DNA of 64,000 bases from the IMG/VR virus record IMGVR_UViG_3300045988_171958, positions 32,001-96,000 of that record, one strand, 5' to 3'. The number at the start of each line of letters is the position of its first letter. Positions within the stretch are counted from its first letter, which is position 1. Below, in pieces: positions 131-61,100 of this stretch. The position numbers were made by a program, and so were the translations under genes. This stretch comes from a virus. The notes under the pieces were generated by a model. It saw only the letters and a list, made by a program, of their open reading frames with translations. It was not told the DNA's origin and did no database searches.

Positions 131-131
131 A

Positions 132-222
132 TTCTCCAGGGAAGCGCCTGGGTCACACAGGGAGCGGAAGAATATGTTTCAGTATATTCTATCAGCTAAG
201 ACAATTTTAACGTCCTTGGCAC
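132..222 (+). repeat. GC-rich structured element, copy A (family of four)
   Basis: Core AGCGCCTGGGTCACACAGGGAGCGGAA at 143-169 and an inner hairpin GAATAT/ATATTC at 170-189. The 3' arm TCCTTGG..AC (213-222) is complementary to the core. About 53 of 60 positions match the reverse complement of 46087-46178 in my hand alignment. Confidence 0.7.
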
Positions 223-231
223 AATAATTTA

Positions 232-255
232 AGTTCTTGAACAGAACTATGAAAA
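232..255 (-). repeat. post-stop motif ..TAGTTCTGTTCAAGAACTT (copy on minus strand)
   Basis: The reverse complement reads GTTTTCATAGTTCTGTTCAAGAACTT. The same GTTCTGTTCAAGAA hairpin motif occurs at 3730-3754 and 34965-34993. Confidence 0.5.
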
Positions 256-3729: not shown

Positions 3730-3754
3730 AACATCACTTGGTTCTGTTCAAGAA
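3730..3754 (+). repeat. post-stop motif AACATCACTT-GGTTCTGTTCAAGAA
   Basis: Starts 3 nt after the stop codon at 3725-3727. It is near-identical to 34965-34991, which also directly follows a stop codon. Confidence 0.5.
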
Positions 3755-3770
3755 ATAAAGTTAAAATAAA

Positions 3771-8502: not shown

Positions 8503-10155
8503 TTATAAGAAGAAGAACTGTATTGGTTCTACTTGCTGTTGAGTCATATCATCATAAGTCATAGTACATTTATGGATGATTGGCATTTCTAAATTTGTTT
8601 TAAGTCTTATATTTCCAACTTCATCTAATCCAATCATATCTGACTTATCATATATTGTTCTTATATCAACATAACTTAAATCTTTAGATGATGTAAAATG
8701 AAGTTCCTTCTTATTCCAATAACCCTTGTATCTAGCTATCTCATCTGCTTCTGATATGAAATCTAAATCAAAACTAAGTAATCCTGTGGTATTTTCTATA
8801 ACATACGATATCAATTCAGATTTACTTATAAATAATGTATCAGTAGGTAATGACATGAAGTAATTAGATATTACATTAGTTATGCTATTTTTTATAGAAT
8901 CTTTTATTGTAGATGTCGATAGCTTTATATAACACATGATAGAATATCTTCTTATTATTGGATCTACAAAAGTAAGGGAAGTACCAACAAAAGCCTTATT
9001 TGATTGTTCTAAAGCCTGAATAATCATAGATTTTTGATTATCAGTCAATAACATAGATTCTTTACTTAATTTCAAATAATCACTTGGGGTGGATAAATGA
9101 TCTTTAAATTTAGAAAATGCAATACAAGTTATCTTTGTAGAATTTCTAGATGACATCAAATTGAATTGTCCAACAAATGAAAATCTCTTTAAGAACATTT
9201 TGAAATTGTCTTCACTTGCTAATACTAAAGATCGAGAATTCATACCAACTAATTCTTTTACATTTGCGATAGTATCGGCATCTGTACCTCCACATATATA
9301 GCTTGTTATTGTGATATTTAGCAAATCATTAGCTTCTACTAAATCTCCAATAGAATTTCTTATGGAAGATTTGAATTTTAAAGTAACATCATCTGATGGT
9401 GAAATATTTCCAAGACTTCCATCATGTGATATGTATTTTACAGTTATTTGGTCTCCTTCATTCAAATTGTGACCATGATATCCATTACCAAACATAACAG
9501 AGAAACCTCCATCATATCCATTCTTTACTACACAGCTATGTTCATCTTCTATCATATCATACAAACAACTTGATATTGACCATCTTTCTCCATTCACATA
9601 TACTTTCATGTGATTGATATCATACAAGCTATTTACTTCTGCCTCTATTGTTTCCAATGGTTCTCCTTTAGCTGTAGCTGTTGCTCTTTTCCAAGTACCT
9701 TGTAAAATAGATATGGAATGTGTTACTAATGGCTTGCTCATATCTATTACTATAGAATCAACTGGTAAATCAACTGAATATGTTACACCGGTTGACTCAT
9801 TCATCAACTGACATTCATCTTCTATAACTATCTTATCTGTTGAATTAGATATCTTATTAGAAATAAGCACAGTACCTGAAGCTGAAGCGCCATAATATGC
9901 ATCATATCCGCTTATCTTTGCTAAACTATATATTGATTTCTTTCTAGTAGCAGTAAATATATTCTGTTCTGTCATAGCATCTTCTATGTAGAACATCATA
10001 TTTTGCATGACACCCTTTATTCCTTCTAATACGGATCCAAATATTGATGATTGAGAATATGCTTGTCCTAAACCACCAAATGATTTGTTGAGAAAATCCT
10101 GCATGGTTTCAGAAAAATTCTCATAAGATGTCTTTAATATTTCAAATAGTCTCAT
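8503..10155 (-). CDS. baseplate wedge protein, gp6 / Baseplate_J-like
   Basis: 550-aa ORF that starts immediately after the stop of the gp25-like gene. The size, the synteny (W then J) and the N-terminal region resemble the Baseplate_J family. This is recognition by eye only. Confidence 0.5.
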   Translation of the reverse strand: MRLFEILKTSYENFSETMQDFLNKSFGGLGQAYSQSSIFGSVLEGIKGVMQNMMFYIEDAMTEQNIFTATRKKSIYSLAKISGYDAYYGASASGTVLISNKISNSTDKIVIEDECQLMNESTGVTYSVDLPVDSIVIDMSKPLVTHSISILQGTWKRATATAKGEPLETIEAEVNSLYDINHMKVYVNGERWSISSCLYDMIEDEHSCVVKNGYDGGFSVMFGNGYHGHNLNEGDQITVKYISHDGSLGNISPSDDVTLKFKSSIRNSIGDLVEANDLLNITITSYICGGTDADTIANVKELVGMNSRSLVLASEDNFKMFLKRFSFVGQFNLMSSRNSTKITCIAFSKFKDHLSTPSDYLKLSKESMLLTDNQKSMIIQALEQSNKAFVGTSLTFVDPIIRRYSIMCYIKLSTSTIKDSIKNSITNVISNYFMSLPTDTLFISKSELISYVIENTTGLLSFDLDFISEADEIARYKGYWNKKELHFTSSKDLSYVDIRTIYDKSDMIGLDEVGNIRLKTNLEMPIIHKCTMTYDDMTQQQVEPIQFFFL

Positions 10156-12379: not shown

Positions 12380-12470
12380 TCACCAGGAACAACAAAAAAT
12401 GCTTTAGACATATAATTTATAGTCTAAAGCATTTTCCAATCCCTGACCGCCCCAGGCGCTATTCTAGGGA
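12380..12470 (-). repeat. GC-rich structured element, copy B (minus orientation)
   Basis: The reverse complement reads AGCGCCTGGGGCGGTCAGGGATTGGAAAATGCTTTAGAC..GTCTAAAGCATTTTTTGTTGTTCCTGGTGA, with a 12-bp inner hairpin. It starts 9 nt after the stop of the 12479-14245 gene. Confidence 0.7.
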
Positions 12471-12478
12471 ATCCATGA

Positions 12479-15381: not shown

Positions 15382-15675
15382 ATGAGTAGAATAATAGAAA
15401 TAGAAAGAGATAGCAGACCAGTAAATATAAAAGTAGGATATCTTCCAACAGAAGAAACTACTGTATATATCAAATGGGCCATATATAAAAAGAAGCATAA
15501 GTTTCTTTGGAAGACTTGGTATACATTTGATTATGACTTGACTGTACCATATATATCAGAAAAGCCATTGTCCGCAGCAGAACGTGAATCTAACATCAAA
15601 TTAGAATTAGCTAGTATAGAAGTAAGGCATAGTATCTATCAGAGAATTTTAAGTAAAAAGATGCAATTAAATTGA
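15382..15675 (+). CDS. hypothetical protein
   Basis: The internal ATG (MSRIIEIERD..) was chosen because the track start at 15277 overlaps the divergent gene and the promoter. Confidence 0.55.
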   Translation: MSRIIEIERDSRPVNIKVGYLPTEETTVYIKWAIYKKKHKFLWKTWYTFDYDLTVPYISEKPLSAAERESNIKLELASIEVRHSIYQRILSKKMQLN

Positions 15676-15699
15676 AATTTTCTATAAAGATTCTATATT
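15672..15699 (+). promoter_or_regulatory. promoter (TTGAAAT-N12-TTCTATATT)
   Basis: Consensus match, followed by TATTATGTA as in the other copies. Confidence 0.55.
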
Positions 15700-15737
15700 T
15701 ATTATGTATTATTTAAAACATTTAAAATTTGATTATT

Positions 15738-19147: not shown

Positions 19148-20371
19148 ATGAATCATGATAGTATTTTATTAAAAATCTTTTTTAATAAAGAGAATAAGAT
19201 AATTGGAGGAAAAGTAGCAAGGATAAAAAGAATATTCCCAAACATATTGTCTTATTTAAATAAAAGATATCCTGATTCATTTTCTTTAAAAGAAACTCTA
19301 ATTAGGATGAAATATCATATTGATGTTCATCCAAAATGCCCGGTTTGTGGAAATTTTACAAAGTTTTATGGGTTTAAAAATTTGATGTTTGCAAATCATT
19401 GTTCTAACAAATGTACTCAATTAGATAGTGAAACTAAAATAAAATTTAAACAAACTTGCTTTAAAAAATATGGGGTTGATGCTCCAATGAAATCTTCTAA
19501 AATAAAAGAAAAATCTAAACAAGTTTGTTTAGAAAAATATGGTGTGGAAAATATATCACAATTTTTTGAAACTAAAGAAAAATATAAACAAACTTGTTTA
19601 GAAAAATATAATGTTGATAATCCATTTAAATTAGAAAAAACGAAAATAAATTCACATTCAAAAGAAGCTAAAGAAAAGCAAAGAAAAACTTGTTTAGAAA
19701 AGTATGGAGTAGAAAATTCATTCCAATCAAAAGAAGTTAGACAAAAATATAAAGAAAATTATAAAAGAAAATATGGAGTAGAAAATCCATTTCAAAACGA
19801 AATAATAAAAGAAAAGATAAAACAAACTTGTTTAGAAAAATATGGTGTTGATAGAGCAATTAAAAGTGATTTGGTAAAAGAAAAATGTAAACAAACTTGC
19901 TTGGAAAAATATGGAAGTAGTTCACCAATGAAAAACCCATATATTGTAAATAAATCTATAAATAAGAGAATTCAAAACAATACTTGGTCTACTTCAAAAC
20001 CAGAAGAAGAATTGTATCTTTATATAAAAGAAAGATTTCCATCTGTAAAAAGACAGTATAAAGATAAAGAAAGATACCCATATTTTTGTGATTTCTACAT
20101 TCCTGAATTAGATTTGTTTTTAGAATTGAATGGGACTTGGACACATGGAAACCATCCTTATGATATGAATTCTAAAGAAGACAATTCTATATTAAATATA
20201 TGGAAAGAAAAATCTAAAGAACATCCTATGTATTTAAGTGCAATAAAAACATGGGTTGTAAGTGATGTAAATAAGAGAAATAAAGCAAAAGAAAATCATT
20301 TAAATTTTAAAGAAGTTTGGAATTTAGATGAAGGAAAAGAATTTATAAATAAATTAACTAGAAGAGAATAA
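19148..20371 (+). CDS. homing-endonuclease-like protein: Zn-ribbon, eight CLEKYGV repeats and a C-terminal PD-(D/E)XK (Vsr/DUF559-like) domain
   Basis: CPVCGN..HCSNKC at the N-terminus, then 8 copies of K-x-T-C-L-E-K-Y-G-V-x-N. The C-terminus ..YPYFCDFYIPELDLFLELNGTWTHG resembles the D..(E/D)xK nuclease core. Confidence 0.5.
   Translation: MNHDSILLKIFFNKENKIIGGKVARIKRIFPNILSYLNKRYPDSFSLKETLIRMKYHIDVHPKCPVCGNFTKFYGFKNLMFANHCSNKCTQLDSETKIKFKQTCFKKYGVDAPMKSSKIKEKSKQVCLEKYGVENISQFFETKEKYKQTCLEKYNVDNPFKLEKTKINSHSKEAKEKQRKTCLEKYGVENSFQSKEVRQKYKENYKRKYGVENPFQNEIIKEKIKQTCLEKYGVDRAIKSDLVKEKCKQTCLEKYGSSSPMKNPYIVNKSINKRIQNNTWSTSKPEEELYLYIKERFPSVKRQYKDKERYPYFCDFYIPELDLFLELNGTWTHGNHPYDMNSKEDNSILNIWKEKSKEHPMYLSAIKTWVVSDVNKRNKAKENHLNFKEVWNLDEGKEFINKLTRRE
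19441..19930 (+). repeat. in-frame tandem repeats (~90-99 nt units) encoding the CLEKYGV motif
   Basis: AAACAAACTTGTTTAGAAAAATATGGTGT-like strings recur about eight times at ~30-aa spacing. Confidence 0.7.
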
Positions 20372-25015: not shown

Positions 25016-25044
25016 TTTGAAATATTCTTGAATAATTCTATATT
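25016..25044 (+). promoter_or_regulatory. promoter (TTTGAAAT-N12-TTCTATATT)
   Basis: Exact consensus, followed by ATATATGTT. Confidence 0.6.
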
Positions 25045-25081
25045 ATATATGTTAATTTTAATTATTTAATTTAATTTAATT

Positions 25082-27196: not shown

Positions 27197-27225
27197 TTTG
27201 AAATTTTCGAAAGAAATTCTATATT
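27197..27225 (+). promoter_or_regulatory. promoter (TTTGAAAT-N12-TTCTATATT)
   Basis: Exact consensus, followed by TATTATGTA. Confidence 0.6.
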
Positions 27226-27253
27226 TATTATGTAAAAATAATAATGATTAATA

Positions 27254-33198: not shown

Positions 33199-33227
33199 TT
33201 TGAAATTTTTTATGTTTATTCTATATT
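33199..33227 (+). promoter_or_regulatory. promoter (TTTGAAAT-N12-TTCTATATT)
   Basis: Exact consensus, followed by TAAGATGTT. Confidence 0.6.
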
Positions 33228-33254
33228 TAAGATGTTAAATAATAAATATAGATT

Positions 33255-33657: not shown

Positions 33658-34446
33658 ATGAAAAAGATAAAATATTTGATAGTAGGTTCAGCTTTTCTTG
33701 GTGGACTATCTGGAACATTACCACCCATGTTCATTAATGCTAGTCCTAATATTAATTCATTAGTAAAAGAAAAAGAAGATAGTACTCATCTTTGGAAGAA
33801 CATTAAGCTATATAGTGTAGTAAGAGATACATTGACTATAGAAGAAAGAGTACAACGTATTGAGGAAATGATGACCATTGACATCAATACAATGGCAAAG
33901 TCTTCTGATGTACATGAACATCATACTAATACTTATGAACATATTTATACATATAAGAATGCAAGTATAAGTAAGAAAGGAAAAGAGTTCATCAAGAAAT
34001 ATGAATCTTGTGTCCTTACTGCTTACAAGCTTAAAGGTGAAAAGAGATATACTATAGGTTATGGTCATGTAATCTATGAAAATGATATCCCACATAAGAT
34101 AAGTCAAGAATATGCTGATAAGCTATTTGATAAGGATATGGATAAGTTCAATGTTCATGTAAGAGAATTGCTTTCTGAACTTGACCATAGATTTATCTAT
34201 ACTCAATCATTTATTGATGGGTTGACATCATTGACATATAATTGTGGACCAGATGGTGTAAGAAAGACAAGGTTCTGGAAACGAATGAAGGCATGTCGAT
34301 ATGATAAGGAAACAAAAGCTATCAATAAGAAAGACTTGATTTATGCCATAGAAGCAGTAAAGACAGCCAATATTTCTAGAATATATTATTCTGGTCACAA
34401 GAACAGAAGAAAAGCAGAACACAATAAAATGACAGAAGAAGTATAA
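33658..34446 (+). CDS. GH24 (T4 e-type) lysozyme with an N-terminal signal-anchor (SAR-like endolysin)
   Basis: FIKKYESCVLTAYKLKGEKRYTIGYGH matches the catalytic Glu ... TIGxGH motif. EYADKLFDKDMDKF resembles T4L DEAEKLFNQDVDAA. The N-terminus MKKIKYLIVGSAFLGGLSGTL is hydrophobic and Gly-rich. Confidence 0.8.
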   Translation: MKKIKYLIVGSAFLGGLSGTLPPMFINASPNINSLVKEKEDSTHLWKNIKLYSVVRDTLTIEERVQRIEEMMTIDINTMAKSSDVHEHHTNTYEHIYTYKNASISKKGKEFIKKYESCVLTAYKLKGEKRYTIGYGHVIYENDIPHKISQEYADKLFDKDMDKFNVHVRELLSELDHRFIYTQSFIDGLTSLTYNCGPDGVRKTRFWKRMKACRYDKETKAINKKDLIYAIEAVKTANISRIYYSGHKNRRKAEHNKMTEEV

Positions 34447-34458
34447 AATATTATAATT

Positions 34459-34962
34459 ATGAAAGTAAATACTAAGAGTGCTATTATATCAGCCATAACA
34501 TTTGTATTGTTTCTTACTGGAAGTATGCTTATTGTCAACAAATGTACTGGGGCATCAAATGATATTGCTATAGTAGGTGATACATTGACATCAGAAGGTA
34601 AAGTAATGGAATTCGATTATCAAAATCATAAGTTCATCAATATTGTAAAATTTGATGAAAATGGCAATGCAGAAAGTTTTGTTGTTCATGATCCTAATTG
34701 TCGGTGTAGTGTAAAGAAATTGAATAATATCACTACAGTCATTACAAATAATGACAATCATAATAAGTTGAGTTCTGATTCTATTGTAAAAGCTAATTTC
34801 AGAGTTGTACTTTCTAAACTCAATTCATTACATAATGACAATGCCGCATTAATGAAAGAAGTAAAGACTTTGCGAACAGAAGTAGCAATGCTTAAGAAAA
34901 TGAAGACAAATTGTACTTATAAACCTATTCATAGAAAAGTACAATCAAAGAAGAGAAGATAA
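34459..34962 (+). CDS. membrane-anchored coiled-coil protein (spanin-like)
   Basis: N-terminal TM segment AIISAITFVLFLTGSMLIV followed by a Cys, then a C-terminal heptad region LHNDNAALMKEVKTLRTEVAMLKKM. It sits immediately after the endolysin. Confidence 0.45.
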   Translation: MKVNTKSAIISAITFVLFLTGSMLIVNKCTGASNDIAIVGDTLTSEGKVMEFDYQNHKFINIVKFDENGNAESFVVHDPNCRCSVKKLNNITTVITNNDNHNKLSSDSIVKANFRVVLSKLNSLHNDNAALMKEVKTLRTEVAMLKKMKTNCTYKPIHRKVQSKKRR

Positions 34963-34964
34963 TA

Positions 34965-34993
34965 AACATCACTTATAGTTCTGTTCAAGAACT
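34965..34993 (+). repeat. post-stop motif AACATCACTTATAGTTCTGTTCAAGAACT
   Basis: Begins 3 nt after the stop at 34960-34962. See the copies at 3730-3754 and 232-255. Confidence 0.5.
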
Positions 34994-35012
34994 TAAGTTA
35001 ATGTTATCTACA

Positions 35013-35105
35013 GAAGCGCCTGGGTCACACAGGAAGCGGAAAATTGTTTAAGAGTATATTTATATACCTGAAATATATTTAACGTCCCTGTGTGACTTTT
35101 TATTT
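35013..35105 (+). repeat. GC-rich structured element, copy C
   Basis: AGCGCCTGGGTCACACAGGAAGCGGAA core. GTCACACAGG (35024-35033) pairs perfectly with CCTGTGTGAC (35087-35096), and TTTTTATTT follows, so the overall shape resembles a terminator. Confidence 0.75.
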
Positions 35106-35150
35106 AAATAAAAGTTTGAAATAACTTAGTTCATTTTATTCACTAAGTGA

Positions 35151-35178
35151 ATGAAATTAATTAAAATTGTTCTATTTT
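35151..35178 (+). promoter_or_regulatory. promoter (ATGAAATT-N12-TTCTATTTT variant)
   Basis: Consensus-like boxes 27 nt upstream of the ATG at 35205. Confidence 0.45.
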
Positions 35179-35204
35179 ATATTTGAATAAAAAATATTGA
35201 AATT

Positions 35205-35402
35205 ATGATGGAATTGATTTTTGGAATAATTGCTATATTAGTAGGTCTTTTCATAACAGTACTTGTCCTGTTTATAATAGTAGGATTAATAAAACTGTTT
35301 ATTGGAAGTATAGCTTTCATGGGAGGATTTGTTTTGAAGGCCATAGGTAGTTTCATCTTTTGGTGTATTGCTATCTTTGTTGCATTATGTTTGATTTTTT
35401 AA
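35205..35402 (+). CDS. small membrane protein
   Basis: 65 aa with two hydrophobic helices. Confidence 0.55.
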   Translation: MMELIFGIIAILVGLFITVLVLFIIVGLIKLFIGSIAFMGGFVLKAIGSFIFWCIAIFVALCLIF

Positions 35403-41570: not shown

Positions 41571-41599
41571 TTTGAATTTTAATTCAACTTTTCTATATT
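41571..41599 (+). promoter_or_regulatory. promoter (TTTGAATT-N12-TTCTATATT), tandem to the previous one
   Basis: Consensus match 31 nt upstream of the ATG at 41630. Confidence 0.55.
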
Positions 41600-41629
41600 A
41601 GATACGTTAAACAAATATAAATAAAAACA

Positions 41630-44511: not shown

Positions 44512-44540
44512 TTTGAAATTTTTAAATTCATTTCTATATT
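44512..44540 (+). promoter_or_regulatory. promoter (TTTGAAAT-N12-TTCTATATT)
   Basis: Exact consensus. Confidence 0.6.
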
Positions 44541-44579
44541 AAATCTGTTCAAAATAAGAAGTTTAATTTTTAAAATTTT

Positions 44580-44858: not shown

Positions 44859-44887
44859 TTTGAAATTTCTTGGTATTATTCTATTTT
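44859..44887 (+). promoter_or_regulatory. promoter (TTTGAAAT-N12-TTCTATTTT)
   Basis: Consensus with one -10 substitution. Confidence 0.5.
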
Positions 44888-44928
44888 ATTCATGTCAAAT
44901 AAATAATAAACATTAAAATATTAAAATT

Positions 44929-45604: not shown

Positions 45605-45827
45605 GTATATCAATTCATTGACAATTCATTTTTGTCTTGGAATATTGTCAGCATTTATTGTCATATTGGTAGCAGACAATATCTCTTTAGCAACGATATG
45701 CTTGCTTGTATTTGCTCTCCCTATATGGTTTACTTTCTATAATAGAGTAAAAGATATGGCTTCAGAAGAAATTTCAGAGAAGTTAGGTTTTAGAGGTAAC
45801 AAATTCTTAGATTGTACAAATGAGTAA
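45597..45827 (+). CDS. small two-TM membrane protein
   Basis: The internal ATG (MHKYINSL..) overlaps the previous stop. Hydrophobic helices are ILSAFIVILVA and ICLLVFALPIWFTF. Confidence 0.5.
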   Translation: MHKYINSLTIHFCLGILSAFIVILVADNISLATICLLVFALPIWFTFYNRVKDMASEEISEKLGFRGNKFLDCTNE

Positions 45828-46113
45828 CTTATATAATATTGAATCAAGATATCAGTATCATACAAGAACTGGTATTGAATGGACAAAATGGTTTTGTATG
45901 TTGTCAGAAGGTCCTAATGAGGATAAAGCTTTTCTTGAGCAGAAAATTTCAGACTATAAAGATAATGATAAGAGGATAAAAGCAAAGTTGAAGCATGAAT
46001 ATCGTATAGTTGATTATGTAGAACCAGAAGAGGTTCATGCATTTCAGAAAATGTATACTAGAAGAAAGAATAAAAACTCTAAAAAGTCACCAGGAACAAC
46101 TAAAAAGTCTTAG
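45820..46113 (+). CDS. hypothetical basic protein
   Basis: 97 aa. Its last 9 codons (KKSPGTTKKS*) are encoded by the antisense strand of GC-rich element copy D. Confidence 0.55.
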   Translation: MSNLYNIESRYQYHTRTGIEWTKWFCMLSEGPNEDKAFLEQKISDYKDNDKRIKAKLKHEYRIVDYVEPEEVHAFQKMYTRRKNKNSKKSPGTTKKS

Positions 46114-46178
46114 GCTGATAGAATATACTGAAGCATATTTTTCCGCTCCCTGACCGCCCCAGGCGCTTAACAGGAGAA
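46087..46178 (-). repeat. GC-rich structured element, copy D (minus orientation)
   Basis: The reverse complement reads TTCTCCTGTTAAGCGCCTGGGGCGGTCAGGGAGCGGAAAAATATGCTTCAGTATATTCTATCAGCCTAAGAC..GTTCCTGGTGAC followed by TTTTT. It is the closest relative of copy A. Confidence 0.7.
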
Positions 46179-46220
46179 CATTATATTATATATTAGTAAA
46201 ACTTTTAAATATGAATTTTT

Positions 46221-46617: not shown

Positions 46618-48573
46618 ATGAGTAAAGTTTTAGGCTTGGATCTCGGTACTGGTATGTCATGTGTAGCAGTAATTGAGGCAGGTAAACCAGTTGTGGTAGT
46701 AAATGAAGAAGGAACAAGAACAACACCATCAGTAGTACAGATTACAAAAGATGAAGTGAAGATTGGTAATGCAGCAAAGCGTGCAATGGTAACAAATCCA
46801 AAGAACACTATCAGTTTTGTAAAGCGTTTGATGGGTGCTGATTTTAATGATGAGAATGTAAAGAAGATGCAGAAGCTTGCAACTTATGATATTGTAAATA
46901 AGTCTGGTAAGCCTTATGTTAAGATCGATGACAAAGAATATTCTCCTGAACAGATTTCATCTATGATTGTTGGCAAGATGAAAAAAGTTGCACAAGACTA
47001 TGTTGGTGAAGAAATTAAAGATGCAGTAATTACGGTACCAGCTTGGTTTGGTGATGCTGCCCGTACAGCAACTAAGACAGCAGGTGAGCTTGCTGGATTG
47101 AATGTACTTCGTGTAATTAATGAGCCAACATCAGCGGCATTGGCTGCTAACTTGATGGAAGACAAGAAAGACAAGACTGTTGTAGTAGTGGATTCTGGTA
47201 CTGGTACAGTCGATGTTTCTGTTCTTGAGTTGTCTGATGGTATGGCTGAAGTACTTGCATCAAATGGTGATGTATATCTTGGAGGTAAAGATTATGATGA
47301 TGCTATTGTAAAGTGGGTAGTTGATGAATTCAAGAAGTCAGATGATGTTGATTTGGCAAAGGACAATATGGCTTATGCTCGTGTAGTAGAATCTGCAGAA
47401 AAAGCAAAGATTGAATTGTCAAGTTCAACACAGACAGAGATTAATCTCCCATATATTTCTATGAAAGATGGTGCACCATTGAATCTTGCTATGACACTTT
47501 CTCGTGCTAAGTTTGAATCTCTTGTAAAGAATTTGAATGATCGTACTGTTGAAAAGGCAAAGATTGCTGTAGAGAAGGCTGGTAAGAAATATGATGATAT
47601 TGATTGTATCTTGCTTGTAGGTGGTACAACTCGTATTCCATCATTACAAGAGGCATTGAAGAAGGAATTCAATAAGCCATTGAATCAATCTGTAAATCCA
47701 GATGAAGCAGTTGCATTGGGTGCTGCTAAGCAAGCTGATATTCTTGCTGGTAATTCTACTGGTGATTTGTTGCTTCTTGATGTTACTCCATTGTCATTGG
47801 GTATCGAAACTAAGGGAGATATGATGGCACCTATTGTTGAAGCAAATACAACAATTCCATGTCAAAAGAAGCAAGTATTCACCACATCTATTGATAACCA
47901 ACCTATGGTTGAAGTGAATGTATTGCAAGGTGAACGTAAGATTGCTTCTGGCAATAAGTCTATTGGTAGATTCAGATTGGATGGAATTCCTATGGCAAAG
48001 GCCGGTGTACCACAGATTGAAGTTTGCTTTGATATTGATGCAAATGGTATTGTTACAGTTACTGCTAAAGATCTTGGTACTAATAAAGAACAGCATATTA
48101 CAATCAGTAACAACACACTTACTGATGAGGAAATCAAAGCAATCAAGGAAGATGCTGAGAAGTTCAAGGAAGCTGATGAAAAGAAGACACAAGAAACCAA
48201 TGACATCAATGATGCAGAACGTTATATGTTCAATACAAAAGAGATGATTGCCAATGAAGACTTTGTCAAGGCTACATCAGATGAAGATAGAGCTAAAGCA
48301 CAAGAAAAACTTGATGCATTAGAATCAATTGTTGTATTGAAGGACAAAGACCATGATAAGATCATGGAAGCTAAGAAAGAGTTAGAAGAAGTTTGGAACC
48401 CTATAGTTGAGAAATTCTATGCCGATAAGCAAAAGAGTCAAGATTGTACTAATAAGACAGAGACACAGGAAGGAAATGCAAAGGAAGAGAATGCGTCAAA
48501 TCCTGACAATGATAAGAAGGAAGAAAAATCAGATGATGTAAAAGTAGAAGATGCAGTAGTTGAAGATGCATAA
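46618..48573 (+). CDS. dnaK: Hsp70 chaperone DnaK
   Basis: Full-length 651 aa. Motifs include LGLDLGTGMSCVAV, ..AVITVPAWFGDAAR..AGLNVLRVINEPTSAALA.., LLVGGTTRIPS.. and DEAVALGAA, plus a substrate-binding domain and an acidic C-terminal tail. Confidence 0.95.
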   Translation: MSKVLGLDLGTGMSCVAVIEAGKPVVVVNEEGTRTTPSVVQITKDEVKIGNAAKRAMVTNPKNTISFVKRLMGADFNDENVKKMQKLATYDIVNKSGKPYVKIDDKEYSPEQISSMIVGKMKKVAQDYVGEEIKDAVITVPAWFGDAARTATKTAGELAGLNVLRVINEPTSAALAANLMEDKKDKTVVVVDSGTGTVDVSVLELSDGMAEVLASNGDVYLGGKDYDDAIVKWVVDEFKKSDDVDLAKDNMAYARVVESAEKAKIELSSSTQTEINLPYISMKDGAPLNLAMTLSRAKFESLVKNLNDRTVEKAKIAVEKAGKKYDDIDCILLVGGTTRIPSLQEALKKEFNKPLNQSVNPDEAVALGAAKQADILAGNSTGDLLLLDVTPLSLGIETKGDMMAPIVEANTTIPCQKKQVFTTSIDNQPMVEVNVLQGERKIASGNKSIGRFRLDGIPMAKAGVPQIEVCFDIDANGIVTVTAKDLGTNKEQHITISNNTLTDEEIKAIKEDAEKFKEADEKKTQETNDINDAERYMFNTKEMIANEDFVKATSDEDRAKAQEKLDALESIVVLKDKDHDKIMEAKKELEEVWNPIVEKFYADKQKSQDCTNKTETQEGNAKEENASNPDNDKKEEKSDDVKVEDAVVEDA

Positions 48574-51989: not shown

Positions 51990-52044
51990 AAGGTTAAGAA
52001 ATAGTAGAAAATATTTAAATATGTTTTTGAAATTTCTTAACCTT
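51990..52044 (+). terminator. 13-bp hairpin enclosing a -35 box
   Basis: AAGGTTAAGAAAT (51990-52002) / ATTTCTTAACCTT (52032-52044) followed by TTT. Confidence 0.6.
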
Positions 52045-52054
52045 TTTCTATATT
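52026..52054 (+). promoter_or_regulatory. promoter (TTTGAAAT-N12-TTCTATATT)
   Basis: Exact consensus. The spacer is the 3' arm of the preceding hairpin, and TATTATGTA follows. Confidence 0.6.
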
Positions 52055-52072
52055 TATTATGTATTAAAATTA

Positions 52073-52381
52073 ATGATTAAGATTATGATAAAGAACAATT
52101 ATTCAAAAGCATATACATATACGATTATTGTGAACATCATATTTGCAAATGGTGTTAAAGAAAAGCTTTGTCGATACACTTGCGACATCAATTTGAATCC
52201 AATTAATAAGATTATGGACAAGTTGAATGCTACATTGATTGATAAAGATGGTACTCCAACGTTAGAATTTGCTAATTGGATTATTGAGAATCATCCAGAA
52301 TTCAAGATAAGTGATATTCTTGATAAGGATACTAGAATATATTTTGAATTTGTTGATTCACTTCCTGCAATTAACATTTAG
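52073..52381 (+). CDS. small hypothetical protein (tandem paralogue family, member 1)
   Basis: 102 aa with ..IDKDGTPTLEFANWIIEN.. and C-terminal ..RIYFEFVDSLPAINI. Confidence 0.6.
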   Translation: MIKIMIKNNYSKAYTYTIIVNIIFANGVKEKLCRYTCDINLNPINKIMDKLNATLIDKDGTPTLEFANWIIENHPEFKISDILDKDTRIYFEFVDSLPAINI

Positions 52382-55149: not shown

Positions 55150-58100
55150 TTATTGATTATAATAAGATTTACCATAACAATATAAGTTAACTGTATGACT
55201 AGTAGAAGCATCAGTACCAATATGTATATTCTTTGGAATCTTATCAATAGGACATACAAATGTATATTCATAAGATGAAGTACCAAGTGTAGAAGCATCA
55301 GTACCTTGTACTGCAGTTAATGTATGTTTGGTTGCATTTAATGTATAATTATAAGTTTTGGTCCAATCCTTTGTTGATGTACCAGAAGTAGCAGTAACTT
55401 TATAATCAGAAATAGAAGCTGTAGTATCATAGGTTTGTGGATCAAATGCAGTTATTGTCTTATCATCACTACATGTTAAAGTACCAGTAAAATCAACTGT
55501 TGCTCCATAATTTTTAAGGGTAAATGTACAACTAGCAGTTGATCCTCCATAAGAGATAGTACATGTAACATCAGTAGTATTACCGTCAGTTGCATTTTTA
55601 CCAGCAGATACTGTAACTTTATTTGTACTTGTTGTACTATTACCATAATCCCAATTATATGTTACACCTGGATCATCAATTACAATAAAATCACCAAAAT
55701 TAACACCATCAGTTGAAGTGGCCATTTCACAAACAATATGTACACTTAAATCAAATGTTGAAGCATTTGTATCAAAGTATGTATGTTCAATAGTTTGTGT
55801 TGTATTTGTTTCATTAACATTTGTACCACAATAAACATAAAGATTATATATAGCAGTCATAGATGTTACTTCAAATGTCCACTCATAATCTTTTAATTCA
55901 TATTTTTTATTTATTTCATGGTTTTCTATTGTAGTAGATATATCTACACTATCTAATTTAAACGTTCTAATACCAATTACATCAGGAGTGGTTGTAACTT
56001 CTATTGTTTTAGTAGTTTTATCATACTTTTTACCATCACATAACCAATTGTATTTTATTATTGCATTTGAAGGTAAATTTTCAATAAAAGAAGGCCCTAT
56101 AAATACTTTAGTATTATTCTGTACTGGTTTACCATTTTTCTTGCTTAATTTAATTATTGCTGAAAAAGGACTAACAACCTTTATTCCGGTACGATCTTCA
56201 GTAGCACCTATTGTACATTTTATAGGTTTACTTATACTAGTAACACTTTTACATTTATCATAATTTGTACTATCAGTTTTAAAATTATCTTCATGGACAT
56301 TAATAGTTGTATTCTCATACTTTTTAATTCTAGTAAACTTTGTGATATATGCTGATTGTATTTTTGCTCCTTCAGAAGATATAGATTTATCAATAACTAG
56401 GTTTGCACAATTAAATGTTTTGGTTATTTCAAATTCTGCTGATTGTGTACCTTTACCATTCGGTGTTCCTTGTTGCACTACAGGTGCACTAGCAGTATTT
56501 TTATTGTAAGTGTATTCTAATTTTATAGTTCCTAATGGTCTTTCTTTAATACCTGTACTTACTCCTCCTGTTACTGTATAGAATTCTAATTTCTTAGAAT
56601 AATTAGTAGTATCATTAGACTTATCATCTATTTCTTTTAATAATTTAACCAATTTATTACCAGTCCAATTATTCACACCAGGTGTTATAATTGAACCAGA
56701 TTCACCTTCATTCTTATCATAAATTAAATGACAAATTTTGCTCTTTATAGTTTTAGAATCTAGATATACTTTTGTTTCATCAATTCCTTCAGAAGGTTCA
56801 AAAGACCAACTATAATAATTATCAACATCAAGTTTTCCAGCTGGTATTTTAAAATATGTATAAGTTAAAGATGTTGAAGGTTTTGTCAAGTCCGGAGTTG
56901 AAACTTTAGGATCAAATCTAGTAGATGCAGCATTGGTATAAGGGGTATCTTCAATGGGAATATTCCATTTTGTATCAACATTAATCTTAAAGAATGTGTC
57001 CTTTCCTGGTTCATACTTAGGTTCATCCGAAGCTGATATTGGTTCATTACCTCCAGAAGCACTTACCATTATCTTATCATCTATAGTATTTAATGTTATA
57101 TTATCCCATGTTAAAACACCATTATCTAAAGTAACTTTTCCTATAAGAATACCTGTTTTAATAGATGTATTACCCGATTTACAATCATTTATATCTATAA
57201 GTTCATCATATAAATTTAATGTACCATTTCCATTATCTATAATACTATTAAGTTTCTCTGATGTAAATTTTATAGTACCTGGCAAAGTTTTAGGATATAA
57301 AGGAGTTTTGTTACTTAATTTAGCAGGTATCATCGTAATAAATACATTATAATCATTTACTAAAGAAAGATCATCCACGGTATTTAAATATGTTTGCCCA
57401 TAATGTTTAAGAGTAAATGTACAAGTTGAATGATATGTTTCTTTATAAGTTGCTGTACATGTAACTATTTTATCTTTAGAATTATTATACCCTTTACCTG
57501 GTTCTAAATCAACTTTTGTATTATTTCCATTTGCTTCTGTTATAATATTGCCATTATCTTTCCATGAATATGTTACTTTAGGGTCATCAATTTCTATCCA
57601 ATTATTATAATCACTACCATTTTCTGTTGTTCTATACCAACATCTAACATATACATTTAAATTAAATGTTGATGCATTTTCAGCCCAATATAAGTGCTCA
57701 ATTGTTTCTGCTTGTGTTTGTGTTTTGGTAGAATATATAACAACACTATATTGATAACCAGTACCCGTAGTAACTACAAATTTCCATTCATATCCTAACT
57801 GGTATCTTGTAATGAATGTTTGTCCTGAAATTTCTGGATATGTAGAATTATTTTCATATTCATCTGTAACAGTACATTCATCTAATGCAAATGTTCTAGT
57901 ACCTGTTGTTGAAGGTGTAGTTGTAACTTCTATTGTGTTAGTGGTTTCACCATAAGATTCACCATCTAATTTCCAAATATATTTAATTGTTCGTTTTTTA
58001 GGTTTAACCATTTTATTACTTGCTGGACCAACAACAGTCTTACTACTATTAGAAGATATTCCATTCATCTTTAATCTATCAATTATGGCAGAAGGAATAG

Positions 58101-61100
58101 CAACTACAGTAATATTATTTTCTGTATTTTCTGTACAACCTATTGTACATTTGATAGGTTTATCTATTGTGGTAGTACTACTACATTTATCATAATTTTC
58201 ACCGTATTTTGTAAATGTTCCTTCTTTTATATTTAAAGAAGCTTTATTCCATTTTACTCCAGCAGTAGTAAACTTTGTGATATATGCTATATCTTCATTA
58301 TTTCCGGTTGCTGATATTGATGTATCTACTAAACAACTACAATTTATTTGATTTGATACTTTAAATGTTGCTGAATTAGTCTGTTCACCTGCAGTTTTAC
58401 CATTTTGAGTGACCTTAGTAGTAGCACTAGTACCAGTCTTTGTATAATCTAATTTTAAAGTACCTAATGGTCTACTATCTTGAGCTCCAGTTACACCTCC
58501 AATAACTTTATAAAATCCTACTTTATCTTTATTTTCTTTTATTTCTTTTGTTAAAATGTAAGAATCCTTTGTCCATATCCACTCATTAAATTCATCAGTA
58601 ATATTTTCTCCTCTTGGTTTAGGATTATTAGGATAATTTATTTTTACAGTTCTCTTAGTGTTATTACTTAATGTTACTCCAGTTACTCCTTTATCAGGAG
58701 TAAATGACCATTTATAATAATCATTAACATCTAATTTTTCTCCTGGTACCTCAACATCAAATGTAGATTGTCCATTAAATGTAGGATCAGAAGTATCTGT
58801 ATATGGACTATCAACATCAGGAACATTCCATGAAGTTGAAACAGATATAGTAAATTTACCATCTGAACCTGCAGTATAATTTGGACTATTTGTTGGTGTA
58901 ACATCATGTGTACCTTCTTCTGCTCCAACAGTTACATTATCCAATTTGATAGTTGTCCATGTTAATGATGCAGAATCTTGTGTATATGTACCTATATCTA
59001 ATGTAGTAGATTTAAAATCTTTATTACCAGAGACACTTAATGAACCTGATCCACTTTTTTTTCTACTACTAAATGTTAATATTGCTGGAAGGCTATCAGG
59101 ATATTCTGTTGAAGTACTACTACGTTTTGTCGGAGTTGATCCTACATACACATGTCCATCAGATAAAAATGGAGTGGCTAAATAACCTCCATAATCTTGT
59201 CCAAATCTATATAAGTTAAATTCTACAGTACCAGAATATCCTTCTGCTGAACTTACTGTAACAGAAATAATTTTACCTAAGCCTAGGTTATCCATACTAG
59301 TTCCTGGAGTTACAGATGAAACATTAACTGTTGCTGTGTTATTTTTATTACTATCTGTTCCTACCCAAGTATATTTAACACCAGTAATACTTGTACTATC
59401 ATTTTTCCAATCATCAGTACCTACCTTTGATTGTAATTGATAACCAGCAACTTTTAATTCCCATTTAGTTGAATCCCAATATATTTTTTTACTTGTATAA
59501 GCTTCTAAAGTAATCTTAATTCTAAATTGCTTCTGTTGGGATGTTATTGTAATTGTACTACTATTTAATTCATTATATTTATTATCACCATTAAACCATG
59601 CAACATAAATAACATAAGTTCCTGGTTTTGTTATATGTACAGTACTTTCTCCAGTAGTATCTAATGATTGCCAATTTTTAGTATCAGTACCTTCAACAAC
59701 TGCCATTTTAGCAGTATATGTAGTATCAACTAATGGGCCTACAGAACCAGATGATGATTTAGTTGTTGTTTGGGTATCGCCAATCCATCCATCTGGACTT
59801 TCTGGATGTATACTAAAACCATACATATAATTCCATGTCTTCTTACCAGTATGTTTGTAATTTACTGTTAAAGCAGATATTGATTTTACTCCTAAATATG
59901 TACTTACAGGAACATTATATTTAAATTCTTGACTTGAACCTTCAAATGTTGCAGTAGGTACAGTAGTTGGAAAATTACCTTCTGATAACTTATCGGAATA
60001 ATTATATATGTATGTACTTATATTCTCACTTGACCCAGTATCACCTGATGGGTTAGGATCTGGTGATGTTATATTAGATACAGTAAATGCGCCATAATCA
60101 ATAGATTCATTATAACTTTTATCGGCAGGACCCACTGGTTTAGATGTGGTACAATTTACTCCAGATGTTACAAAAGTATAAGCTATTTCATCATGCCAAC
60201 CTTCTTGCCCATTTTGTGGTACTGTTATTGAATTTCCTTCGTATGTTATACTACTATTATTAATATCTACTACTCTTATCTTAATAGTATGGTTTATTGG
60301 ATCTGCTGTTTTATAATATCCTGATGTATATTTGTATATTCCTTCATTTACATCAGTCCATTCATCAGAAGATTTCAAATCAAGAGAACAATCTCTATCC
60401 CATGTTGCATCATTGCTTTGTATATATTTAGTAGTAGAATCTGACCAACTTCCTGTATCTACTTTATATTGATATTTATAATTAGCAGGGTTGGGTTGTA
60501 CAGATCCGCTAAGTACAATACCATTGGCAGGGTTTGCAGGTTTAGAACTAATTATATTGCTACTTACAGATATTGAATAATCTTGCTTCTTACTAGTTGC
60601 AGATTCTGTTTCTACAGTACCTGATGATTTAGATATAATAATAGTTGCACCATACCAAGGAATAGTAGTATAATTTACACCAGGAGTAAGGTTTTTTTGT
60701 CCTGTAACATACAATTGTTTAGCTGATTTGAGACTATAATTGGCACTTGTACTCTTACCATCAACAGGGTATTTGGTGCTCCCATCACAACTATTTATAC
60801 CTTCACCAGTTCCTTTTATAGTAATAGTACCAGATATGTTAGTACCATTTTGAGATATAGTTATAGTAGATGGGCTTGGTGTCAGTACACCATCTTGATA
60901 AGTAGATCCTGAAAATGATATAGTGCCAGATGTTGCTGATGAATTTTTAGTAGTAGATGTAAATGTAAGTGTACCATCACTAGCAGAGGCATACCAATTA
61001 CCTATTATTGGCGGATTAGAAGCCAATGTTGCAGTAAAACTATCATCAGTATTGTCATTATTCCATGTTTTGCTTGCCTTAGAAAATGTCAAATCTTGAG

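Follow-up and report, generated by a model that had tools for sequence, protein, structure and literature searches.

Structured, GC-rich cassettes at gene ends form a multi-copy family in a clade of large gut phages

At 35003..35101 (+) of the window analysed here (the whole 64-kb stretch of phage DNA, 30.8% G+C) a GC-rich element lies behind the end of a gene, and three further elements of the same kind are scattered over both strands. The question raised by this locus is what such an element is, and what it does between the genes of an AT-rich phage. We show that it belongs to a real and previously undescribed family of structured intergenic cassettes carried by a clade of large gut phages, and we weigh the functions that would account for its fold, its position and its mode of evolution.

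The four copies are defined by a shared core. The pattern AGCGCCTGGG-N5-CAGGRA is matched without mismatch at 143-163 (+), 12440-12460 (-), 35015-35035 (+) and 46147-46167 (-), hereafter copies A, B, C and D, with C the element under study; there are exactly four matches in the window, and still four when up to three mismatches are allowed. The GC-rich core common to all four spans 27 nt, for which shuffled sequences give a chance expectation of 0.01 (0 of 100 shuffles contained four matches), and the four cores are the sole 24-nt stretches in the window with at least 67% G+C. The preliminary description of this DNA, made from the letters alone, was thus correct in placing four GC-rich copies at these positions.

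Copy C (core match; fold z = -4.4; covariance model 99.4 bits) follows an open reading frame with its stop codon at 34960-34962. It consists of a weak 5′ hairpin, P0 (CAG at 35011-35013, CTG at 35020-35022), the core (35015-35041), a GC clamp, P1, in which 35022-35033 pairs with 35087-35098, an interior hairpin at about 35041-35081 with the apex GTATA/TATAC, and a T-run (35097-35101). Promoter-like motifs of the phage's repeated TTTGAAAT...TTCTAT(A/T)TT family occupy 35115..35180 (+) and begin 14 nt past this T-run, which places copy C at a terminator-promoter boundary. Copy A (131..222, +; core match, fold, 96.3 bits) lies behind a stop codon at 128-130 and comprises TTC (132-134), P0 arms CCAGG and CCTGG (136-140 and 147-151) around the loop GAAGCG, the core (143-169) with the 5′ clamp arm (152-163), an AU-rich interior (170-212) and a shortened 3′ arm, TCCTTGG (213-219). 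On the minus strand, copy B (12380..12474; core match, 75.2 bits) follows a stop codon at 12481-12479 with TTC (12471-12469), P0 (CCCTAG at 12469-12464, CTGGGG at 12455-12450), the core (12460-12434), a 12-bp inner stem plus T6 (12437-12394) and the 3′ arm TTCCTGGTGA (12390-12380); behind it lie ATTG...TATATCTA, which is promoter-like, and the start of the following gene (12323). Copy D (46081..46180, -; core match, 95.4 bits; orthologue in L013) has TTC at 46178-46176, an upstream segment, CTCCTGT, complementary to CAGGGAG of the core, the core itself (46167-46141), the 3′ arm TTCCTGGTGAC (46096-46086) and a T-run (46085-46081). It is antisense to the flanking plus-strand genes and overlaps the final 27 nt of the open reading frame 45820-46113.

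These boundaries and folds refine the earlier account in several respects. Its 5′ boundary lies about 12 nt beyond the one first given, at the conserved TTC that leads into the small hairpin. Minimum-free-energy folds contain both the long-range helix proposed for copy C (GGGUCACACAGG / CCUGUGUGACUU), at 12 bp instead of the 10 bp given originally, and the 12-bp inner stem of copy B. The proposed 3′ arm of copy A is shortened to about 6-7 bp; the 3′ arms of copies B and D, described as pairing back to the core, pair about equally well with the upstream segment; and the GAATAT/ATATTC inner hairpin drawn for copies A and D competes with a second local fold. Copies A, B and C have folding z-scores between -3.1 and -4.4, copy D taken alone one of only -0.7. 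Also as first described, copies A, B and C follow a same-strand stop codon, beginning 1-41 nt past it, and T-runs lie behind copies C and D.

A second, separate repeated intergenic hairpin, AGTTCT-N5-AGAACT (Module X), abuts copy A in the opposite orientation (232..248, -) and recurs between the stop codon and copy C (34977..34993, +), where it is found in the window and in L011 and is absent from the orthologues L003 and L032. An ordinary bidirectional terminator lies about 35 nt downstream of copy A, so that the element is not needed for termination at that site.

To establish the extent of the family, we scanned for exact patterns and then searched with a covariance model trained on 34 copies. 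Family 1, as we call it, has 89 distinct members, which occupy about 14 loci and number at least 8-12 per genome; every one of them lies within one clade of AT-rich gut phage contigs of 170-290 kb. The contigs that carry it include seven from IMG/VR (167-283 kb, one sample) and contigs of up to 292 kb from human-gut metagenomes; copies are also present on contigs binned into two 'Romboutsia' MAGs. These phages can be abundant, one contig reaching 513x coverage in the sample behind ERZ1026903. That binning is doubtful, given that a Shine-Dalgarno-like motif precedes only 1 of 48 genes, a proportion which we take to fit a Bacteroidota host better than the 'Romboutsia' label. Among ten window proteins scanned against PHROGs are an endolysin, a tail-like protein and NrdD, and a 57% match to Lak phages concerns an Hsp70-like protein and is not evidence of kinship. 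Outside the clade, core-pattern matches in 185,579 species genomes are chance matches in GC-rich DNA, GenBank phages gave no match to the element (megablast, blastn), and a 42-kb stretch of Prevotella phage Lak-A1 contains no comparable GC islands.

The core had not been matched to any known RNA family, and this stands. At gathering thresholds no Rfam 15 family (those covered include hammerhead, twister, HDV-like, pistol, hatchet, SRP and Y RNA) matches anywhere in the window; at permissive thresholds the copy C region (E up to 10) and five loci of other subtypes (E up to 5) return only chance-level microRNA and snoRNA matches, and a scan for tRNA and tmRNA genes found none. Nor are the copies remnants of a duplicated gene end, as might have been supposed: their left flanks cluster into about 14 unrelated groups, and the upstream genes are unrelated to one another.

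Across the family the parts follow one another in a fixed order. Behind the upstream stop codon come a spacer of 0-9 nt, the conserved TTC and an upstream segment, usually (A/T)CCAGG or CTAGG; these are followed by a 6-nt loop (AAAGCG, ATGGCG or AATGTG), CCTGGG, the 5′ clamp arm (usually TCACACAGGGA) and GCGGAA. A variable inner hairpin, P3, has a semi-conserved AU-rich apex (GTATA..TAT) and leads through TTAACG into the 3′ clamp arm (TCCCTGTGTGA), beyond which lies a T-run, another module or the next gene. Conservation, weighted by locus, is highest in the 5′ half: 0.99 for GCGCCTGGG, 0.96 for GCGGAA and 0.90 for the 5′ arm, as against 0.77 for the 3′ arm and 0.72 for the upstream segment. 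The strand that partners GCGGAA varies among loci (TTAACG, TTTCCGC, TTTCCAC and others). The invariant block itself amounts to a hairpin of 4-5 bp (CCUG/CAGG) and the bases beside it; pairing within this hairpin is in competition with the clamp.

At minimum free energy most copies fold into a short 5′ hairpin, P0, and a long rod made up of P1, two further pairs and P3, that is, an 11-bp GC clamp enclosing an AU-rich interior hairpin, often with a T-run behind it. Clamps of 11-18 bp occur, and fold energies reach -26 to -60 kcal/mol. A minority of copies, with the loop variants ACGTT, GCGGT or ATGGC and including copies B and D of the window, depart from this plan: here the 3′ arm pairs about as well or better with the upstream segment, giving a three-way junction from which the invariant CCUG/CAGG hairpin branches. 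Both sides have changed at 9 of 12 pairs in P3 and at 5 of 13 in P1, and in paired cells and covariation score none of 500 shuffles and no slid control reaches the family structure, a within-family test that is not strong alone because the copies are related. RNAalifold on a first MAFFT alignment recovered only the invariant 4-bp hairpin, the subtypes being out of register.

The fold favours one strand. The sense fold is the more stable by a mean of 3.3 kcal/mol (72 of 89 copies; 14 of 15 locus groups), and the same bias is seen in seven of eight copies of a sister family described below. Counted by alignment cells, G.U pairs outnumber A.C mismatches 266 to 87; counted by pairs the figures are 18 and 16, and the bias is gone.

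Of particular weight is the site of copy C, downstream of a 167-aa gene of the lysis cassette, which we followed through relatives with 55-68% protein identity. The rod is kept there with a span of 59-80 nt, and it is closed by six unrelated, and in each case perfectly complementary, clamp sequences of 11-18 bp. The 5′ and 3′ arms read UCACACAGGGA / UCCCUGUGUGA in family 1, GGUCGCCGCCUGGUCG / UGACCAGGCGGCGAUU in L336, GGCGGCC / GGCCGCC plus four more pairs in L270 and ACGCUGGCGUCC / GGACGCCAGCGU in L275, while L274 and L335 have 16 and 18 perfect pairs, respectively. The interior keeps its size and the motifs GCG(G)AAAU, UAUAAAUUAU and AUUUU-AA across lineages, and P0 is recognisable both in the sister family (GCCAGGAGTCGCTGGGC versus CCAGGAAAGCGCCTGGG) and in L336; the T-run is absent from several of these orthologues (L275, L335). 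We regard the replacement of a whole helix at an orthologous locus as decisive evidence for the predicted fold. Together with the compensatory changes in P3 and the sense bias, it argues, as the preliminary description had done from four copies, for a conserved fold of one strand over a plain duplex DNA site. From these comparisons we conclude that a strand-specific hairpin is under selection, with RNA as its simplest carrier and a hairpin of single-stranded DNA as the alternative.

The position of the element is equally constrained. It runs in the sense of the upstream gene at 12 of 14 loci, the model starting 0-21 nt past the stop codon; under random orientation at least 12 of 14 would be expected with p = 0.0065. 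The remaining two loci, copy D and one other, are antisense in spacers between co-directional genes, where the core is intact, as it is in their orthologues. A T-run (at least four T, within 10 nt) follows 52 of 87 copies and is present at 9 of 14 loci, with none at five. At several loci a promoter-like motif, TTTGAAAT...TTCTATATT, begins 15-35 nt further on; elsewhere a convergent gene ends there. This motif lies outside the conserved unit: it is found after loci 1, 6, 8 and probably 13, and is absent where a convergent or next gene follows. A simple scan for promoters and terminators did not flag the elements, as the clamp encloses more than 8 nt. In more distant relatives (L332-L334, 55-65% identity over 65-81% of the query) the position of copy C is taken by a plain 15-bp hairpin with a U-run and a promoter. 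Taken together, these observations put the element in the place of a terminator.

Family, fold, strand bias, position behind the stop codon, whole-helix compensation and mosaicism (see below) are what comparison of the sequences brings to light, and with moderate confidence we take them to describe an RNA 3′-end or terminator cassette that would be homogenised among its copies by gene conversion or recombination. As in an intrinsic terminator, there is a stable G+C-rich stem-loop, placed in sense at the end of a transcription unit. Of the identities offered beforehand, a structured 3′-UTR or processing element fits best, given the 12 loci past a same-strand stop codon and the plain terminator of the distant relatives. 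The cassette would be transcribed and would fold in RNA into P0 and then the rod, with the GC clamp P1 closing the AU-rich P3; lying directly past the stop codon it would end the transcript, or define and protect its 3′ end, and would insulate the next transcription unit. The clamp is specific to a lineage, and recombination or gene conversion would keep the copies within a genome alike and hence mosaic. In addition, the invariant 5′ half (GCGCCUGGG...CAGGRAGCGGAA, including P0) may be recognised by a protein or engage in an alternative pairing through which read-through is tuned. We infer that the fold would form in RNA rather than in single-stranded DNA, that the element would terminate or stabilise transcripts, and that some such added reading of its 5′ half would take place. 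A pure role in ending the transcript of the upstream gene leaves the antisense loci, copy D among them, unexplained, and a simple terminator needs neither the extra conservation of the 5′ half nor a P0 that is conserved between families. Nor do the five loci that lack a T-run, the varying partner strand of GCGGAA, or copy A with its shortened 3′ arm and an ordinary terminator behind it, sit easily with a plain terminator.

The history of the copies bears on this reading and on its chief rival. A sister phage, IMG/VR 3300001525_000092, carries its own multi-copy family (family 2), with six copies over 148 kb, to which two related contigs add another three. Family 2 matches family 1 in layout and in placement after stop codons and has a clamp of its own, which shows clamps to be specific to a lineage and uniform within a genome. 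Within family 1, one P3 'allele' is found at several loci, and several alleles are found at one locus with orthologous flanks on both sides. Locus 12 combines a single left flank with four different right ones, and copy D is identical to its orthologue in L013 except for five changes, all within a 12-nt upstream segment. Together, the sharing of alleles, the mosaic flanks and the pattern of copy D point to gene conversion or recombination among copies, a process that could be the source of part of the sequence uniformity.

Uniformity of this kind also raises the possibility that the element is selected as DNA: a REP/REPIN- or MITE-like repeat, forming a single-stranded-DNA hairpin that is spread by a lineage-specific nuclease or transposase, or that serves as a recombination hotspot, with effects on transcripts secondary. 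The copies are indeed extragenic, multi-copy, GC-rich inverted repeats with a spacer of about 50 nt. Their clamp arms are specific to a lineage and alike among the paralogues of a genome in both families, inner parts have been swapped among loci, and two loci are oriented opposite to their operon; moreover, G.T pairs are tolerated in DNA hairpins, which makes the strand bias compatible with such an origin. The traces of mobility are, however, missing where they were sought. By inspection, no target-site duplication is visible in 89 aligned copies, and among the orthologous loci examined there is no precise empty site; copies are intact, decayed by transitions, or internally deleted in the core. 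Copy B illustrates the mode of loss, since in some relatives the GC core at its locus is eroded by transitions, with ends that still pair via G.U, and in another the core is deleted and the inner hairpin and T-run are kept. The ends pair in only a minority of copies, short of the terminal inverted repeats of a MITE, and no transposase is present among the ten window proteins scanned against PHROGs. The classical miniature transposon, one of the identities first proposed, thus finds no support. An orientation that is non-random and a start locked to the stop codon are likewise at odds with a DNA-level repeat, and the orthology of copy C across lineages at 55-68% identity marks it as old and stable rather than hopping. 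On balance we consider an element maintained as DNA to be unlikely, although it is the reading that survives best beside a transcript-end cassette.

The strong conservation of one strand suggests a different alternative, in which the element acts in trans as a structured small RNA or protein decoy. Termination or processing would free it from 3′ UTRs, or at the antisense loci it would have a transcript of its own, and its invariant 5′ sequence would act on a host or phage factor. Such a role would account for a 27-nt 5′ core whose partner strand varies freely, and for the intact core at two loci which do not mark a gene end, where a TATAAT-like box lies 1 nt before TTC (L013, L225, L018:374). 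Two copies of family 2 (L289, L318) are without P0 and begin immediately behind a promoter-like motif, and the sense bias of the fold extends to the antisense loci (groups 4 and 11). At these two loci, copy D included, a stand-alone small RNA is possible. For the family as a whole the proposal is rather improbable. Only the architecture is kept between lineages, the core sequence varying, which makes a conserved host target unlikely; the favoured fold buries the core in the P1 clamp; no similar or complementary 27-mer occurs in host genomes (185,579 species genomes); and more distant relatives have a plain terminator in place of the element.

A more speculative extension, to which we assign a similarly small chance, is that each lineage has a factor of its own (an RNA-binding antiterminator, a processing nuclease or a DNA hairpin enzyme) that reads the GC clamp and the 5′ hairpin, the 8-15 cassettes of a genome forming a co-evolving, switchable regulon of gene ends. 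If so, read-through would be set at many unit borders at once, for instance as a timing switch during infection.

Switching could also be built into the RNA itself. In many copies of family 1 four segments, a (the upstream CCAGG), b (CCUGG), c (CAGGG) and d (CCCUG), allow two pairings, a:b with c:d, which gives the terminator, and b:c with or without a:d; in an attenuator of this kind a ribosome that stops 5-12 nt upstream, or a protein on the invariant b:c hairpin, would decide between termination and read-through. The arrangement a:d and b:c is the predicted fold of copies whose loop is ACGTT, GCGGT or ATGGC, and a:b and c:d that of the others; c:d is the weaker duplex at loci 3 and 12 and comparable to a:d at loci 10, 11 and 13. 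The b:c hairpin with its flanks matches the extent of the invariant block, both families keep the element beside the stop codon, and upstream segments that mimic one clamp strand are also present in L275 and L270. Set against this, the b:c helix has 4-5 bp as compared with 11 bp for c:d (-17 to -24 kcal/mol) and, being invariant, offers no covariation. Within sets of orthologues the upstream segment changes at about 5-10 times the rate of the coding flank, with no cognate co-evolution with the 3′ arm (p = 0.92), and in about a third of copies it has the opposite polarity. The case that these pairings make for an attenuator or protein-controlled switch is weak, and we think a switchable terminator distinctly improbable.

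A solitary CRISPR-repeat decoy, as once suggested, or a new self-cleaving ribozyme is the least credible reading and highly improbable: the (A/G)TTCAC lead and 5-bp hairpin presumably recall type I-F repeats in form only, and some copies do have a three-helix junction with conserved junction strands, but junction sequences are unlike between lineages, the Rfam comparisons reported above are negative, and neither a CRISPR array nor a host copy of the 27-nt core (the pattern being the core, not the first 15 nt) was found in 185,579 species genomes.

Other explanations were tried and rejected. Against stop-codon recoding tied to the element, the standard code gives 77% coverage by long open reading frames, with TAA as the usual stop. 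A cluster of CCWGG restriction or methylation sites was dismissed, CCWGG not being avoided elsewhere (47 observed, 24 expected), and a promoter within the hairpin apex would have unsuitable spacing, as judged by eye.

Little is known of how transcription is punctuated in large AT-rich gut phages, and the family provides easily recognised signals at gene ends, with clean compensation of whole helices. It also displays homogenisation and exchange of intergenic modules within a genome, which bears on the origin of mosaic phage genomes. Should the 5′ half prove to be read by a dedicated factor, the cassettes would constitute a phage-wide control point for read-through; if they are only terminators, they are a useful feature for annotation and warn against taking every GC island of an AT-rich phage for a small-RNA gene.

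Several known systems resemble the cassettes in part. Correia (CREE/NEMIS), ERIC and RUP elements are dispersed hairpin repeats of about 100-150 bp that are co-transcribed, some being processed by RNase III or acting as terminators; the terminal inverted repeats, target-site duplications and insertion polymorphism that characterise them are not seen in the present family. The RNase III hairpins of phage T7 are similar intergenic rods with internal loops, in sense orientation, that define and stabilise the 3′ ends of mRNAs. Many T-runs and two antisense loci set our family apart from them, as does the lack of any sequence similarity. Like RAT sites of the BglG-LicT type and leader attenuators, the element has a small invariant hairpin that shares bases with the 5′ arm of a larger helix resembling a terminator, and the predicted pairings exclude one another; in contrast to those sites, it lies at gene ends and not in leaders, its candidate antiterminator helix has 4-5 bp, and there is no known regulator.

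REP sequences of bacterial chromosomes, with the BIMEs and REPINs that they form, have reported roles in mRNA 3′-end stability and in termination, and the likeness to them is closer. They too are extragenic, multi-copy, GC-rich inverted repeats, forming hairpins at the 3′ ends of genes, specific to a lineage in sequence and alike within a genome, and the REPIN, two inverted REPs with a spacer, has the overall shape of the clamp-plus-interior rod described here. The present family differs in residing in phage genomes, in its extra conserved 5′ hairpin, in a start locked to the stop codon, and in an interior (GCG(G)AAAU...UAUAAAUUAU...AUUUU) that is better conserved between lineages than the arms. 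A REPIN is, moreover, defined by its cognate RAYT, a Y1 transposase; with no transposase among the ten window proteins, the likeness here is one of form and of sequence behaviour.

The PeSLs (promoter-early stem-loops) of T4-type phages are repeated intergenic cassettes of about 100 bp that start from the upstream stop codon and carry a GC-rich stem-loop, a terminator or attenuator in an AT-rich setting, often beside a promoter; their copies recombine and so give rise to mosaic genomes (PMC2839356, PMC4122927). The shared inner-stem alleles and the flanks of locus 12 show our family to be a site of recombination in the same manner, with the difference that here inner parts are exchanged between copies. 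The conserved unit of a PeSL is a sigma-70-type promoter with a short stem-loop, in variable positions; that of our family is a structured rod of about 100 nt with the promoter outside it, and often absent, and since this promoter is what defines a PeSL the element is not one. REP/REPIN and PeSL are nonetheless its closest analogues, and the element is a member of neither.

In four loci from related phage contigs (L034, L035, L036 and L037, at about 8600-8710), the orthologue of copy B of the GC element, the GC-rich hairpin cassette found at 12380-12474 on the minus strand of the window, is decayed or deleted. Three of the four have a GC core eroded by G-to-A and C-to-T changes, and their ends still pair, via G.U; in the fourth the core is deleted and a plain hairpin plus a T-run is left. 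At one locus the palindrome GTTCAAC-ATCT-GTTGAAC lies directly 3' of the element's T-run; it is present just 3' of the element in L017, L023, L028, L137, L229 and L242.

There is a second repeated intergenic module, here module X. Its unit of ~39 nt, TAATGAACATC(A/T)CTTTC-AGTTCT-GTTCA-AGAACT-AAAGTTA, is found in the window on the minus strand at 232-248 and about 3735-3760 and on the plus strand at 34977-34993, and in relatives at L254 (9807-9925), L007 (2545), L011 (257), L024, L259 and L263. Sites lie 3' of stop codons and ~10 nt downstream of promoter-like boxes. Units also form tandem arrays of two to three, the GC element and module X adjoin directly in either order, and close relatives differ by module X indels. 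Read in frame, the unit would encode a putative peptide, MNI(T/S)FSSVQELKL.

Copy C of the GC element (35003-35101, plus strand) sits within an apparent lysis cassette (33658-35400) comprising, in order, an endolysin of 262 aa, a protein of 167 aa whose N-terminus resembles that of a lipoprotein, copy C together with a promoter, and a small membrane-protein gene; gene order around copy C is kept in relatives. Promoter-like motifs of the family TTTGAAAT-N13/14-TTCTATATTTATTATG stand upstream of plus-strand genes at 15671-15719, 25016-25055, 27197-27245, 33199-33247, 41571-41610, 44512-44560, 44859-44907 and 52026-52074. The family fits a sigma-70-type -35/-10 pair (TTGAAA-16/17-TATATT) and is also compatible with a Bacteroidota -33/-7 pair.

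The start regions of 48 ORFs across the whole window bear on the host. GGAG, GAGG or AGGA precedes the start codon in only one of the 48 genes, a count that argues against the assignment of related contigs to the two 'Romboutsia' MAGs that hold them and makes that assignment doubtful. GCGC is scarce across the window, with 10 sites against ~35 expected (our own estimate from base composition), and four of the 10 lie in GC element cores; CCWGG shows no avoidance (47 observed, 24 expected, whole window).

Repeats also occur inside ORFs. The ORF at 19148-20371 contains six copies with a 69-nt period (19436-19983), each 64-75% identical to the reference copy, which probably correspond to a repeated protein domain. 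A minus-strand ORF of 2625 aa (55150-63027), for which a PHROG search returned no match, contains both copies of an internal duplication (55951-56306 and 57880-58238) that are ~72% identical and 1.93 kb apart.

The sole link found from the window to named phages is a 651-aa protein (46618-48573) that shares 57% identity with Prevotella Lak megaphage proteins and is Hsp70-like, to judge by the Lak-A1 sequence that it matches.
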